Assembly (NCBI GenBank): GCA_035345715.1
Contig: DAORCY010000081.1
Span: forward strand, 1-23,534
Direction of reading: 5' to 3'
DNA length: 23,534 nucleotides
Source of the DNA: Pseudomonadota bacterium
Lineage (GTDB): Bacteria; Myxococcota_A; Polyangia; Palsa-1104; JAEUJZ01
The position numbers and the translations under genes are program-made. Positions 15,004-22,689 of the stretch are shown here, in pieces. The notes below the pieces were generated by a model, which was not told where the DNA came from, ran no database searches, and saw nothing but the letters and a program-made list of their open reading frames with translations. Positions within the stretch are counted from its first letter, which is position 1; each line of letters starts with the position of its first letter.

Positions 15004-17433
15004 ATGCGGCTCACCAGCAGACTCCTCTCTCTGTGTGCCTTGATGTTCGCAACGTGCGAAGGCCCCGTCGGACCCATCGGTCCTTCCGGATCTCTGATTC
15101 CTAGCACGGACATGAATCCGGTGGCGTGCGATCCGAACGGCCCCGGTTTCAAAGCAGAGCTTGCGCTTTCGCCCCCGGCGCAGGGTTCCTATTACATGCC
15201 CGGTGAAGCGCCCAAGCTCACGCTGAAGCTCGGATCGGACTGCGGACGCCTCCTCGCACCGTTGGAGCTTGGGACCGCAAATCTGTACATCGTGGGTCCG
15301 CGCGGGGCACTCACGACCAAGAGTGCGAACCTGCTGCTCAATGCTGTCACCGATCGAACTGCCAAGGATCGCCAGCACCACTACATCAACCTAAAGAATC
15401 CGTCCTACGCAAACCCAAACGCACCAGGTCTGACGACGGAATCGGATGGATCGCTGACGTATCAGCTTGCCCCCATCGGAAGTGAAGCAGCGGGAACATA
15501 CACGGTTGCCCTGTGGGCCAAGACCGCAGATGAGCAGCAGCAGATATTCCCTCTGCTCGATTTTCAGATCGGCACAGCGACGGTGGAAACCTATGCATCG
15601 GGCGACCCGCAGTCTTCTAGCTGCGCCGACTGTCACAAGGGAACCGAGACCGGCAAGCTGTACATGCATCACATCGAGCCGGGATTTTCGCCGCTGGGAA
15701 ACTGGTCGCTGGATCTATTCCCCATCGCAAGCTGCAAAGTCTGTCACAACCAGGACGGATACAGTGCCAACACGACGGTGCGCAAAGTCCATGGTGTGCA
15801 CCGCGGTGAACATCAGGCAAACCCTGGCGTCGCCCATCCAGAATACGGCGTTCCCGCCGATACAACCCTGCCGCTGTTTACAAACGTCGGATTCCCATCG
15901 ATGCCTGATGCGGAAAAAGACTGTGCAAAGTGTCACAAAGACGATCGCTATCTGAAAAAGCCGTCGCGTCAGGCCTGCGGCGCTTGTCACGATGCACTGT
16001 TTTTTGACACCGGAACGCTGAGTCCAATCCGCACGTACACCGGCGTTTGTGCCGTCGATGCCGACTGCGCCAGCAAGAGCAGCCTGGCCAAGTGCAATCC
16101 GGCCTCACTGCTGTGCGAAACATCGACGCATCCCAAGCAAACAGACGATGCGCAGTGTACGACGTGCCACAGCGCGGACTCATCGGGCATTTCGCCGATT
16201 CCGGACAAACACGAAATCCTGACGCGCACCCATGTCCGCAAAGTCCAGCTGAGCGAAGTCACGGTATCCGGCGGATCGGGTCCGATGGCCGCCATGATGG
16301 TCGGCGATACATTCAAGCTCAGCTTCAAAGTCGCGGACGGAACAGGTGCCCCGATCACCGATCTGAAGACCAATTCTGCGCTGTCTGCCACGCTGCTGAT
16401 TGGTGGGCCGACAAACGATCGGCAGATGATTTATCCGTCGCTGAGCCTCAAGACGGTGGGAACGCTGACGTTTGATTCCGCGAGCAATGTGTATTCGTAC
16501 AGTCCGGCCACGACTTGGCCGGCGAACGCACAGACGCCACTGAACACGACTGGACTTACGCCGCGGGCCAATCCCGCCGGAACTTATTCCGCGTGGCTCT
16601 ACGTGGTGGAAACGACGACGTACAAAGGCACATCGATCCGCGATGTCGGCAGCGCACTGGTCGATTTCCGCGTCGGTGGATCACAAGCGATTCAGCCGCG
16701 CCATGTCATCAAGCGAGAGTCCTGCAATAGCTGCCACGTTGTCACGCAAGCGCACGGCGGTAGTCGTCGCGATGCGGAAGGCTGTTCGATCTGTCACACC
16801 GCTGGCGCTGTCGATCGCATCGTTGGGGGCCGCGGTCTGGCCTGCACGATGAGCAGCCAATGTCGTGGCAATGCCGCTGGTTGGGAAACTTGTCAGGACA
16901 CCAATGCCGACGGAAAAGCGGACACCTGTGTGATCTCGGTCGATCCGACGCCCGGACAGACGATTCTGTTTTCGGCGATGATTCACTCCACCCACTTCGC
17001 GCGACTGCTCGGTGGTTATGCGGAACGCAGTGGTCTTGTCAAACCAAACGCGCTTGTCTACATCGGCAACTCGAACACTGCGAATGACTTTTCGGAAATT
17101 CTGTTTCCGCAAGATGTTCGCAACTGCAAAAAATGCCACGGAGACTCCGGCGCAAGCTGCTCTGCAGCGGCCCCCTGTGGTATCGGACAGAGCTGCGTGT
17201 CCGGAAAGTGCCAAAACACATCCTATCTACAGGCCGGAACCGCGGCGTGTCTGGGCTGTCACGATACCTCTGCTGCAGCGGGACATGCGGCGCTTAATAC
17301 CTGGACCGATCCGATGGGCAAGCCGGTGGAAACCTGTTCGGTGTGTCACAGCGAAGGCGCGGAGTTTTCTGTCAGCAAAGTCCACAACATCGCAAATCCG
17401 TACAAGCCTCCTTACTTGCGCGAAAAGGAGTAG
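15004..17433 (+). CDS. decaheme c-type cytochrome, probable outer-surface (MtrC/OmcA-like domain layout), signal peptide/possible lipoprotein
   Basis: 809 aa with signal peptide MRLTSRLLSLCALMFATC. There are ten CxxCH motifs: CADCH, CKVCH, CAKCH, CGACH, CTTCH, CNSCH, CSICH, CKKCH, CLGCH and CSVCH. They are arranged as an N-terminal ~190-aa heme-free beta-rich domain, then 5 hemes, then a ~150-aa heme-free beta-rich domain (VTVSGGSGPMAAMMVGDTFKLSFKVADGTGAPITDLK...), then 5 hemes. Confidence 0.85.
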   Translation: MRLTSRLLSLCALMFATCEGPVGPIGPSGSLIPSTDMNPVACDPNGPGFKAELALSPPAQGSYYMPGEAPKLTLKLGSDCGRLLAPLELGTANLYIVGPRGALTTKSANLLLNAVTDRTAKDRQHHYINLKNPSYANPNAPGLTTESDGSLTYQLAPIGSEAAGTYTVALWAKTADEQQQIFPLLDFQIGTATVETYASGDPQSSSCADCHKGTETGKLYMHHIEPGFSPLGNWSLDLFPIASCKVCHNQDGYSANTTVRKVHGVHRGEHQANPGVAHPEYGVPADTTLPLFTNVGFPSMPDAEKDCAKCHKDDRYLKKPSRQACGACHDALFFDTGTLSPIRTYTGVCAVDADCASKSSLAKCNPASLLCETSTHPKQTDDAQCTTCHSADSSGISPIPDKHEILTRTHVRKVQLSEVTVSGGSGPMAAMMVGDTFKLSFKVADGTGAPITDLKTNSALSATLLIGGPTNDRQMIYPSLSLKTVGTLTFDSASNVYSYSPATTWPANAQTPLNTTGLTPRANPAGTYSAWLYVVETTTYKGTSIRDVGSALVDFRVGGSQAIQPRHVIKRESCNSCHVVTQAHGGSRRDAEGCSICHTAGAVDRIVGGRGLACTMSSQCRGNAAGWETCQDTNADGKADTCVISVDPTPGQTILFSAMIHSTHFARLLGGYAERSGLVKPNALVYIGNSNTANDFSEILFPQDVRNCKKCHGDSGASCSAAAPCGIGQSCVSGKCQNTSYLQAGTAACLGCHDTSAAAGHAALNTWTDPMGKPVETCSVCHSEGAEFSVSKVHNIANPYKPPYLREKE

Positions 17434-17438
17434 CGGCG

Positions 17439-21835: not shown

Positions 21836-22438
21836 ATGCTCGCGGTACTGTTTGGACTGGCGATTCTGCTTGCGGCGCTGATCCTGATTCGGCCAGCCCA
21901 CGCGAGCAAGACGCTGGCATTCACAGGTCTGTTTGTGCTGCCGGTGACTGCCAGCGTGATTGGTGTCGACAGACATATCGAAAACTCGAAACAGACTTCT
22001 TTTTGTACTTCGTGTCATGTGATGCAAAAGCACGGAAGGAGTCTGCTTGTCGACGATGCTACGCTCCTGGCGGCGTCCCACTTTCAGGGTGGACGGATTC
22101 CGCGTGAGCAAGCCTGTTTTAGCTGCCACACCACGTACACGATGTATGGTGGTCTACAGGCCAAGCTGCGTGGCGTAAAGCATGTACTCGTAAACTACTT
22201 TGGCAAAATTCCGGACAAGCTCGCGCTGTATGAACCATACAACAACCGCGAGTGTCTGCACTGCCATGAAGGCGCGCGGCGCTACCTCAAAGGAGAGACG
22301 CACAGCGCCGAGCCAGGACGGATGGAAAAGATGCGGCGCAATGAGCTGTCGTGCGTAAGCAAGGACTGCCATGACACGGTGCATCTTACGAGCGAAGTCG
22401 ACAGCATTCCGCTGTGGAAACCGGAGGCGGCCAAATGA
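21836..22438 (+). CDS. NapC/NirT/NrfH/CymA-family membrane-anchored tetraheme cytochrome (quinol dehydrogenase)
   Basis: The SD is AGGGAGGGAAG. An N-terminal TM helix (MLAVLFGLAILLAALILIRPAHA..) is followed by the family-typical first heme motif FCTSCHVM. Further motifs are CFSCH and CLHCH, plus a CX4CH variant (CVSKDCH). Its 200-aa size fits the family. Confidence 0.8.
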   Translation: MLAVLFGLAILLAALILIRPAHASKTLAFTGLFVLPVTASVIGVDRHIENSKQTSFCTSCHVMQKHGRSLLVDDATLLAASHFQGGRIPREQACFSCHTTYTMYGGLQAKLRGVKHVLVNYFGKIPDKLALYEPYNNRECLHCHEGARRYLKGETHSAEPGRMEKMRRNELSCVSKDCHDTVHLTSEVDSIPLWKPEAAK

Positions 22439-22689
22439 ACACCGAGCTATCGCGCATTCGGCTCGCTGCCGCGCTGGTCCTTCTGGGCCTGCTCGTGGAA
22501 AGACTCACCCTTCAGTGGTCACACCCCACCGCATTTTTTGTTTACGCCGGCGTAGGACTTCTGTTTTTGGGCGTTGGTGTGCTGCTGTTTTTGACGACCC
22601 TGCTCGGTGGGGCAAGCGCCCACACATCTTCAAGCCAAGACACCGCCAAGCCAGCGCCTTCTTCCGACGAAAAAACAGCCAAAGCCTAG
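22435..22689 (+). CDS. small membrane protein (2 predicted TM helices), operon accessory
   Basis: The ATG overlaps the NapC-like stop (ATGA). The 84-aa product MNTELSRIRLAAALVLLGLLVERL...FFVYAGVGLLFLGVGVLLFLTTLLGG has two hydrophobic helices followed by a Ser/Pro/Lys-rich tail. There are no recognisable motifs. Confidence 0.4.
   Translation: MNTELSRIRLAAALVLLGLLVERLTLQWSHPTAFFVYAGVGLLFLGVGVLLFLTTLLGGASAHTSSSQDTAKPAPSSDEKTAKA

Follow-up and report, generated by a model that had tools for sequence, protein, structure and literature searches.

A seven-gene operon, apparently from an uncultured soil myxobacterium, resembles a complete electron wire from the inner membrane to the cell exterior

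The stretch of DNA analysed here (23.5 kb, about 58% GC; in the following, the window) looks like part of the genome of an uncultured soil myxobacterium, and it contains an operon that resembles a complete electron wire leading from the inner membrane to the cell exterior. The operon consists of seven tightly packed genes, named A to G, which all lie on the + strand between positions 15004 and 22689 (Table 1). Independent public gene calls on metagenome contigs of 99.4% identity give the same seven product lengths. Start codons were picked by a Shine-Dalgarno-like sequence upstream and by the signal peptide that results; for B and E this led to internal ATGs (17439 and 21437), which have good ribosome-binding sites and yield products with signal peptides. 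A and B are separated by 5 nt, B and C overlap by 11 nt, and the C/D and F/G junctions are ATGA overlaps, while gaps of 62 nt and 45 nt precede E and F, respectively. An earlier note on this DNA, made from the sequence alone, had described seven co-oriented genes joined by signatures of translational coupling. This arrangement stands, including the 11-nt overlap and both ATGA overlaps, and only the first gap, claimed to be 6 nt, has to be corrected to 5 nt.

The operon encodes 41 heme-binding motifs, 38 of the CXXCH and three of the CX4CH type, which is fewer than the approximately 47 heme sites claimed previously. Ten CXXCH motifs are found in A, 11 in B together with two CX4CH, 13 in D, one in E, and three in F together with one CX4CH, while C contains none of either type. 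As the 12 other translated open reading frames of the stretch carry no CXXCH at all, this clustering is far beyond chance. Upstream of A, a 229-bp intergenic region contains a single sigma-70-like match, and the operon promoter, although weakly assigned, probably lies in this region. An Rfam scan of the window returned no RNA family.

Product A is related to the outer-surface cytochromes of Shewanella. It scores 106 bits against the model for MtrC/MtrF domains II/IV (PF22113, cut-off 30) and reaches 184.5 bits (E 3e-54) with the OmcA/MtrC family model TIGR03507, which is under the cut-off of 209. In a sequence search of the Protein Data Bank (PDB), MtrF was the sole match (4e-11). An AlphaFold2 model of A, based on 38 homologs and with a predicted local distance difference test score (pLDDT) of 79, shows four domains (I–IV) and a heme distribution of 5 + 5. 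When this model was compared with the PDB using Foldseek, the top 14 matches were all MtrC, OmcA, or UndA structures (E 6e-16 to 1e-13, 640–935 aligned columns), after which E drops to 1e-5. The homolog alignment further shows that the lipobox cysteine of A, Cys18, is conserved and always followed by E-G-P, and some of the homologs carry the JGI annotation OmcA/MtrC family. Profile scores and predicted fold together support the assignment of A as a decaheme lipoprotein of the MtrC/OmcA family.

Two further features characterize the A family. Right behind the lipid-anchor cysteine, residues 20–31 of A form four collagen-like G-X-Y triplets. Such a (G-X-Y)n run, of 3–22 triplets and terminated by a conserved cysteine, occurs in almost all full-length A-family proteins (homologs P0241–P0360), many of which have a precomputed Pfam Collagen match. 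To our knowledge, an N-terminal G-X-Y stretch is not present in Shewanella MtrC or OmcA, and we found no paper that brings together "collagen-like" and "multiheme cytochrome" in the literature searched. The run may act as a trimerising stalk of a surface cytochrome. In addition, three invariant clusters of four cysteines are inserted in the heme domains of A (residues 349–371, 614–642, and 719–736); these probably form disulfide-knotted loops, and we know of no equivalents in Shewanella MtrC or OmcA.

Product B is a second multiheme cytochrome with a lipobox (LIG-C20) that is conserved among its homologs. It matches the Geobacter-type CxxxxCH/CxxCH domain model TIGR01904 with 76 bits (cut-off 27) and PF09698 with 46.8 bits, while a sequence search of the PDB gave no match. 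B homologs contain 10–11 CXXCH and 2–3 atypical motifs, and their genes usually lie directly upstream of C. The +2 residue of a lipoprotein governs its retention in the inner membrane, and in A, B, and D this residue is not of the retention type.

Product C is free of heme motifs, and its structure as predicted by AlphaFold2 (pLDDT 86.3) is an all-beta barrel with about 22 strands. It carries a signal-peptidase-I signal, ARA|DS, which is conserved as ARA|D/E-x-V-D/E, and it has no Pfam or NCBIfam match. It resembles generic porins and transport barrels. MtrB/PioB was considered as an identity for C and rejected: C matches neither PF11854 nor TIGR03509, and at 420 aa and about 22 strands it has a different size.

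The gene for C overlaps that for D, a cytochrome with 13 CXXCH in 353 aa and no atypical motif. D is built of c7-type units, as indicated by a PF14522 match of 53 bits and by matches to PpcA in the PDB sequence search. An assignment to MtrA/DmsE was likewise rejected, given its 13 hemes and the lack of a TIGR03508 match; as a positive control, the same model scored 256–273 bits (cut-off 192) on the MtrA-like genes of three other loci in our set (L084, L097, and L120). D contains the lipobox FTVA-C20, and its cysteine is conserved in essentially every homolog from related loci. In the D-family set (P0121–P0240, 120 members; loci L001–L041), at least 112 of the 120 proteins match a regular expression for the lipobox; six of the eight misses have one on inspection, and the other two are truncated. 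D is accordingly a predicted lipoprotein. The Anaeromyxobacter-type relatives of D are called "periplasmic" in the literature, and essentially all of them have the lipobox cysteine. In most loci, the C and D genes share a start–stop overlap, and D homologs have 13 CXXCH, or 12 in Anaeromyxobacteraceae. Based on this universal coupling of C and D and on the analogy with MtrAB, we infer that D is threaded through the C barrel. The conserved lipobox would then imply that this barrel-inserted wire is tethered to the membrane.

The last three genes encode the putative inner-membrane and periplasmic end. E, a class I monoheme cytochrome c, matches PF00034 and PF13442 and carries a conserved signal-peptidase-I signal (ASA|DE). 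All of 18 homologs retain its CXXCH and a methionine downstream of it, which points to His/Met ligation. E is found in most conduit loci, at varying positions. F matches PF03264 with 39 bits (cut-off 24.1) but falls into no named equivalog, with scores of 47.6 bits for NrfH (TIGR03153, cut-off 134.2), 25.5 for napC_nirT (TIGR02161, cut-off 310.6), and 24 for TorC (cut-off 478); a sequence search of the PDB gave only spurious matches to carboxy-terminal protease. F has hydrophobic segments at residues 1–24 and 26–45. Its conserved motifs are an initial CXXCHVM, which we take to be as in NrfH, two more CXXCH, and a fourth motif of the CX4CH type. F is an NrfH-like tetraheme membrane cytochrome of the NapC/NirT superfamily and presumably acts as a (mena)quinol dehydrogenase. 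G, which occurs together with F in the Myxococcota loci, has two hydrophobic segments, corresponding to two transmembrane helices, and matches no Pfam or NCBIfam family; it is presumed to be the partner subunit of F.

These results bear out most of the protein assignments of the earlier note. A was read there as a decaheme cytochrome of the outer-surface type, in agreement with its profile scores and predicted fold, and both A and B, described as lipoproteins, have conserved lipoboxes. C, described as an outer-membrane beta-barrel with a signal peptide and without cofactor motifs, is indeed predicted to be a barrel rather than the non-barrel protein that had been named beforehand as contrary evidence. 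The family matches and signal peptide of E fit a monoheme cytochrome c, the above-cut-off PF03264 score and the CX4CH motif of F complete a NapC/NirT-family membrane tetraheme, and G, with 84 aa and two transmembrane helices, is a small membrane protein as claimed. For D, the count of 13 hemes was correct, while its description as soluble gives way to the conserved lipobox.

Hundreds of C homologs exist, all unnamed and without Pfam domains; a profile search retrieved 939 clusters at 50% identity (E ≤ 1e-3), and looking up the cluster members of ten distant C relatives likewise gave no protein names. We therefore compared gene neighborhoods in a set of 44 loci, with one genome per species. Except for one 255-bp fragment, all of them are labelled as Myxococcota or as undivided Proteobacteria, Pseudomonadota, or Deltaproteobacteria metagenome-assembled genomes, and they include Polyangia, Archangium, Anaeromyxobacteraceae, and Bradymonadaceae. 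About 40 of the 44 Myxococcota loci contain the B-C-D core, and in most loci it is adjoined by an A-type decaheme. The heme counts are fixed (13 in D, 10 in A, and 10–11 plus 2–3 atypical in B). Comparative synteny, which the earlier note had suggested as a check, shows one unit, with alternative inner-membrane modules alongside.

Homologs of C and D also occur outside this arrangement. An Anaeromyxobacter species has a two-gene cluster with unrelated flanks, in which a hemeless protein of 447 aa is encoded next to a cytochrome of 353 aa that belongs to the 12-heme family. C is 31% identical to the former over its full length (E 5e-49), and D is 42% identical to the latter (E 4e-88). This pair fits the published description of "Group IV" of the porin–cytochrome (Pcc) conduits in Anaeromyxobacter, in which a porin is combined with a 12-heme cytochrome of 338–344 aa, without an outer-membrane cytochrome (PMC4245776). 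The Anaeromyxobacter D homolog Adeh_3392 was reported to be up under Mn(IV)-reducing conditions (PMC4245776). In Pcc systems, atypical heme motifs are found in the outer-membrane cytochromes and not in the periplasmic ones (PMC4245776), a pattern matched by B, which has CX4CH motifs, and D, which has none. In the isolate Anaeromyxobacter oryzae, the A homolog is solitary, with no conduit nearby and an unrelated nrfHA pair about 8 kb away; this organism thus offers no ready genetic model of the whole operon.

On a 2.4-Mb contig of one Myxococcota genome (L048, identical to L017), which also encodes an A homolog, the conduit is found amid genes for universal stress, CBS-domain, hemerythrin, and Rieske proteins, together with a sigma-54 activator and response regulators. 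These neighbors hint at an oxygen or redox regulation of the conduit. In one subclade, octaheme proteins resembling HAO and hydrazine dehydrogenase (PF13447) are encoded a few kb from the core (L005, L007, and L012); none is present in the window.

The inner-membrane module varies between lineages. In all eight Myxococcota loci that have F, it follows D, either directly or with E in between. Sister lineages without F-G instead encode, within about 9 kb of B-C-D, proteins that are ImcH-like or CbcL-like by architecture. The ImcH-like proteins have about 500 aa, 5+1 hemes, a NapC/NrfH-like domain, and three transmembrane helices; their genes lie near the core in L014, L016, L021, L023, and L026, and in L018 the distance is about 9 kb. 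The CbcL-like protein of L014 combines 13 hemes with a fused cytochrome b561/FdnI-type domain.

To trace E-F-G beyond this family, metagenomes were scanned with F, which yielded 463 confirmed relatives. The close ones represent the same Polyangia operon. The distant ones, from soil metagenomes, are 45–52% identical to F, derive from genomes of 50–69% GC, and lack C and D. Directly upstream of these distant homologs lies an E-like cytochrome (46 of the 63 assessable loci), and a G-like protein is encoded downstream (47 of 64). Where long flanks were available, a decaheme of the DmsE/MtrA family was found nearby in 16 of 27 loci, and 20 of the 27 encode a hemeless protein of MtrB size (about 760–920 aa) that shows homology to three reference barrels. 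One reference barrel, L120, scores 324.6 bits against PF11854 (MtrB_PioB). L097, with 21.5 bits, stays under the cut-off of 23, and for the MtrB-sized proteins of L084, L063, and L085 there was no Pfam match. Judged by these neighborhoods, E-F-G is a portable cassette, and the outer-membrane conduits that it joins are of two unrelated kinds, Pcc and MtrAB. Its presence beside both indicates that it serves outer-membrane conduits in general, and it is the strongest indirect evidence that E-F-G works with A–D in the operon described here. The gene order in the distant loci is MtrA-like, MtrB-like, monoheme cytochrome c, F-like, and G-like (L084, L097, L063, L064, L085, L120, and others in L055–L129). 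This Mto-like cluster type has an NrfH-like rather than a NirT-like tetraheme cytochrome and a two-helix membrane partner.

The window also contains several genes outside the operon (Table 1). An EF-hand calcium-binding protein is encoded divergently from A. Further upstream lies a homolog of the eukaryotic major vault protein, with a shoulder domain match of 66.6 bits, Vault_3 and Vault_4 repeats, a long insert rich in Pro and Ala, and a coiled coil at the C-terminus; this gene is kept in L001–L003. It is preceded by two tandem paralogous cysteine-rich lipoproteins of about 55% mutual identity, which have no Pfam match and contain a vWA/MIDAS-like DxSxS motif (DILFMIDNSPSM). Downstream of G, after 51 nt, an eighth co-oriented gene runs off the end of the window. 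Its product, which has 432 aa in L045, is a class III adenylate/guanylate cyclase whose N-terminal domain is a polytopic membrane domain. We left it out of the module because it is kept downstream only in the closest relatives (L001–L003 and L006); it may be a lineage-specific regulator.

Table 1. Features of the window and of related loci. Coordinates of the lower six rows refer to the respective locus.
Feature	Location	Strand	Length	Description
A	15004-17433	+	809 aa	Predicted MtrC/OmcA-family decaheme lipoprotein
B	17439-19064	+	541 aa	Multiheme cytochrome with conserved lipobox
C	19054-20316	+	420 aa	Predicted outer-membrane beta-barrel
D	20313-21374	+	353 aa	13-heme cytochrome, predicted lipoprotein
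E	21437-21790	+	117 aa	Class I monoheme cytochrome c
F	21836-22438	+	200 aa	NrfH-like tetraheme membrane cytochrome, presumed (mena)quinol dehydrogenase
G	22435-22689	+	84 aa	Small membrane protein, presumed partner of F
G-X-Y run of A (residues 20–31)	15061-15096	+	four triplets	Collagen-like
Intergenic region EF-hand gene/A	14775-15003		229 bp	Probable promoter region
Sigma-70-like match	14952-14981			
EF-hand gene	14190-14774	-	194 aa	EF-hand calcium-binding protein
Vault homolog	11048-13984	+	978 aa	Homolog of eukaryotic major vault protein
Upstream lipoprotein 1	7258-8970	+		Cys-rich lipoprotein
Upstream lipoprotein 2	9204-10874	+		Cys-rich lipoprotein, paralog of the former
Cyclase gene	22741-23534	+		Class III adenylate/guanylate cyclase, runs off end
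L014, ImcH-like	6312-7859	+		ImcH-like by architecture
L014, CbcL-like	3219-5606	-	795 aa	CbcL-like by architecture
L048, A homolog	14078-16594	-		
L005, octaheme	2489-4084	-		HAO/hydrazine-dehydrogenase-like (PF13447)
L007, octaheme	5861-7153	+		PF13447
L012, octaheme	5984-8209	+		PF13447

We consider it very probable that the operon encodes a trans-envelope porin–cytochrome chain. In this chain, F and its partner G would exchange electrons with the (mena)quinone pool at the inner membrane, the soluble monoheme protein E would carry them across the periplasm, and D, inside the C barrel, would conduct them through the outer membrane. On the cell surface, B and A would take electrons from D and hand them over to acceptors that are insoluble or macromolecular, for example Fe(III) or Mn(IV) oxides, humics, or electrodes. 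What the data show are the protein identities and folds, the targeting signals, the gene packing, and the conservation and exchange of modules; we infer that A and B are exposed on the surface, that E passes electrons to D, that the flow is outward, and which acceptors are used. The whole chain with outward flow to extracellular acceptors, known here from sequence and predicted folds, is the reading we prefer, and we hold it to be reasonably likely. Outward flow is favored because A and B are of the surface type, because sister lineages combine the same core with ImcH- and CbcL-like modules, and because of the Mn(IV) hint from Adeh_3392.

Several findings weigh against this reading. F-G is present in only eight of the 44 Myxococcota loci, and the nearest relatives of the cassette are found in Mto-like layouts, which are associated with Fe(II) oxidation. 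The lipobox of D lies outside the classic picture of MtrA or OmaB. His/Met class I cytochromes usually have a high redox potential, which would make E a poor link from menaquinol to multiheme wires of low potential; MtoD of Sideroxydans, a high-potential protein, shows no interaction with ImoA (PMC13390432). Finally, matches to promoter-like and terminator sequences are no commoner in the window than in shuffled sequence, so that a single transcript is deduced from the gene packing only.

Alternatively, electrons might flow inward. Extracellular donors, among them partner cells, minerals, reduced humics, Fe(II), and Mn(II), would then supply D and E, from which the electrons would reach either a terminal oxidase or, by way of F-G, the quinones, in a pathway that resembles Mto or Pio or in a reversible system. 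We regard this as rather unlikely, but it is the most serious alternative. Most Myxococcota are aerobes, and E belongs to the His/Met class I type that usually feeds oxidases. E-F-G is also found elsewhere in the layout of the Sideroxydans Mto cluster (PMC6295460, PMC13390432), and the direction of Mto-type pathways is itself unsettled in the literature (PMC9600427, PMC13390432). Considered as a sign of electron uptake, the His/Met nature of E is weakened by precedents: NirT passes electrons to NirM, a c551-type cytochrome (PMC9600427), and the monoheme PmcA shuttles them between ImoA and MtoA in Sideroxydans (PMC13390432). Moreover, MtrC/OmcA-type and large lipoprotein cytochromes are typical of reducers and absent from the Fe(II)-oxidizing MtoAB and PioAB systems (PMC7096707), and the homolog Adeh_3392 was reported to be up when Mn(IV) is reduced (PMC4245776). 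The ImcH- and CbcL-like modules that accompany the same core are known from Geobacter Fe(III) reduction, which also speaks for an outward direction, even if CbcL homologs occur in oxidizers as well (PMC6295460).

Far less probable is a periplasmic reductase or oxidase acting on nitrite, hydroxylamine, sulfur compounds, soluble metals, or another soluble substrate, with F as its NrfH-type quinol dehydrogenase and C as an ordinary porin. The best curated match of F is NrfH, with which it shares the CXXCHVM motif, C resembles generic porins and transport barrels, and HAO-like octahemes occur near the core in L005, L007, and L012. However, the NrfH score of 47.6 bits is far under the cut-off of 134, and the window contains no CXXCK and no match to the NrfA, HAO, OTR, or MccA families. 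A nitrite, hydroxylamine, or tetrathionate reductase was rejected accordingly, with no CXXCK and no C552, HAO, or OTR match in the window, and the orthology to a characterized periplasmic reductase that the earlier note had set out as contrary evidence was not found. Furthermore, sequence and predicted fold both place A in a family from which only cell-surface cytochromes are known, the predicted lipoproteins A, B, and D lack an inner-membrane retention residue at +2, and the barrel gene is translationally coupled to that of the 13-heme cytochrome throughout the family. It is also conceivable, but least probable of all, that A–D and E–G are neighbors by chance or history and belong to separate pathways. 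In most metagenome loci E-F-G occurs without A–D, A–D lack F-G in 36 of 44 loci, and the 62- and 45-nt gaps before E and F could hold internal promoters. Nevertheless, every context with enough flank has the cassette beside a Pcc or MtrAB conduit, F follows D, directly or via E, in eight of eight Myxococcota loci, and the genes share their orientation and are tightly packed, all of which argues for a joint pathway.

A trans-envelope chain of this kind would have implications for the ecology of this phylum. Myxococcota are abundant in soils, peat, and sediments and, beyond Anaeromyxobacter, are mostly seen as aerobic predators. That the conduit family is both widespread and conserved suggests an ability of many members to respire or tap extracellular redox substrates, such as Fe/Mn oxides and humics, and such extracellular respiration bears on iron and carbon cycling and on methane suppression. 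The combination of an MtrC-type cytochrome with a Pcc-type barrel, and of one cassette with two conduit types, further shows that extracellular electron transfer pathways are built from interchangeable modules. C, D, and the F-G pair represent unannotated families and are missed by most marker-based surveys because they are invisible to Pfam and NCBIfam. A bolder proposal, which we think unlikely as it stands, is that the lipid-anchored D, the stalked MtrC-type A, and the portable E-F-G cassette define a distinct class of wire, which gives largely aerobic soil Myxococcota a reversible extracellular respiration. If this were true, the collagen-like stalk, with up to 22 triplets in relatives, could trimerise and hold hemes nanometres off the membrane.

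The wealth of novel multiheme clusters in Myxococcota, with matches to MtrC and ExtABC, has been noted in metagenome surveys (bioRxiv 10.1101/2022.03.26.485925), and in the literature searched we found no description of this operon, of the lipoprotein nature of the D family, or of the E-F-G cassette. Compared with known systems, the conduit is, by its family relationships, Pcc-type and not Mtr-type, because C fails the MtrB and D the MtrA family tests. Of the two models offered in the earlier note, a Geobacter Pcc-type or a Shewanella Mtr-type conduit, the former thus applies and the latter does not hold for C and D, whereas A does belong to the MtrC/OmcA family. As in the Pcc systems of Geobacter (OmbB-OmaB-OmcB) and Anaeromyxobacter, a barrel of 18–22 strands stands beside a cytochrome with CXXCH motifs only (5–14 in Pcc), and an outer-membrane lipoprotein cytochrome has atypical motifs (CX3-15CH in Pcc, CX4CH in B). 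With the Anaeromyxobacter pair, C and D share true homology, at 31% and 42% identity. Unlike Group IV, however, D has 13 instead of 12 hemes, the operon adds A, B, a monoheme shuttle, and an inner-membrane module, and the whole D family carries a lipobox, whereas the published description is of a periplasmic protein.

With MtrCAB and OmcA of Shewanella, the operon shares the four-domain fold of the MtrC/OmcA/UndA family in A and the principle of combining a surface cytochrome with a barrel and a cytochrome inserted into it. It differs from them in the barrel, as MtrB has about 650–800 aa and 26 strands compared with 420 aa and about 22 strands in C, and in D, which has 13 hemes in c7-type units and no TIGR03508 match, unlike MtrA. 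The Mto system of Sideroxydans lithotrophicus (MtoA, MtoB, MtoD, PmcA, and ImoA) is similar in that a conduit, a monoheme cytochrome, and a tetraheme of the NapC/NirT superfamily are encoded together, and relatives of F are found in exactly the Mto gene order beside MtrA- and MtrB-like genes. No MtoA or MtoB homolog is present among the proteins of the window, and the operon differs from Mto in its Pcc-type outer-membrane conduit with surface cytochromes and in the conserved partner G of F. ImoA, for which complementation of a Shewanella cymA deletion has been carried out, is NirT-like, with 64% identity to P. stutzeri NirT (PMC9600427). F, in contrast, is NrfH-like with a CX4CH fourth motif and only 25.5 bits against napC_nirT, so that the two are analogous and not orthologous.

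ImcH and CbcL of Geobacter have the same presumed role as F-G. Neither is encoded in the window, and proteins that resemble them in architecture occupy the equivalent position in sister Myxococcota. The earlier note had further proposed a self-contained wire, with a quinol dehydrogenase and a periplasmic shuttle in the same operon. Both genes are indeed present, but the layout is not unprecedented, because NapC/NirT-type (cymA-type) genes and monoheme shuttles inside mtr/mto clusters are known from Rhodoferax, Ferrimonas, and Sideroxydans (PMC6295460, PMC13390432). Taken together, these comparisons indicate that the operon is a mosaic, as far as its gene families tell, of a Pcc-type core (B-C-D), an MtrC/OmcA-type surface cytochrome (A), and the E-F-G cassette, and it looks as if parts otherwise known from three separate bacterial systems have been joined in it.

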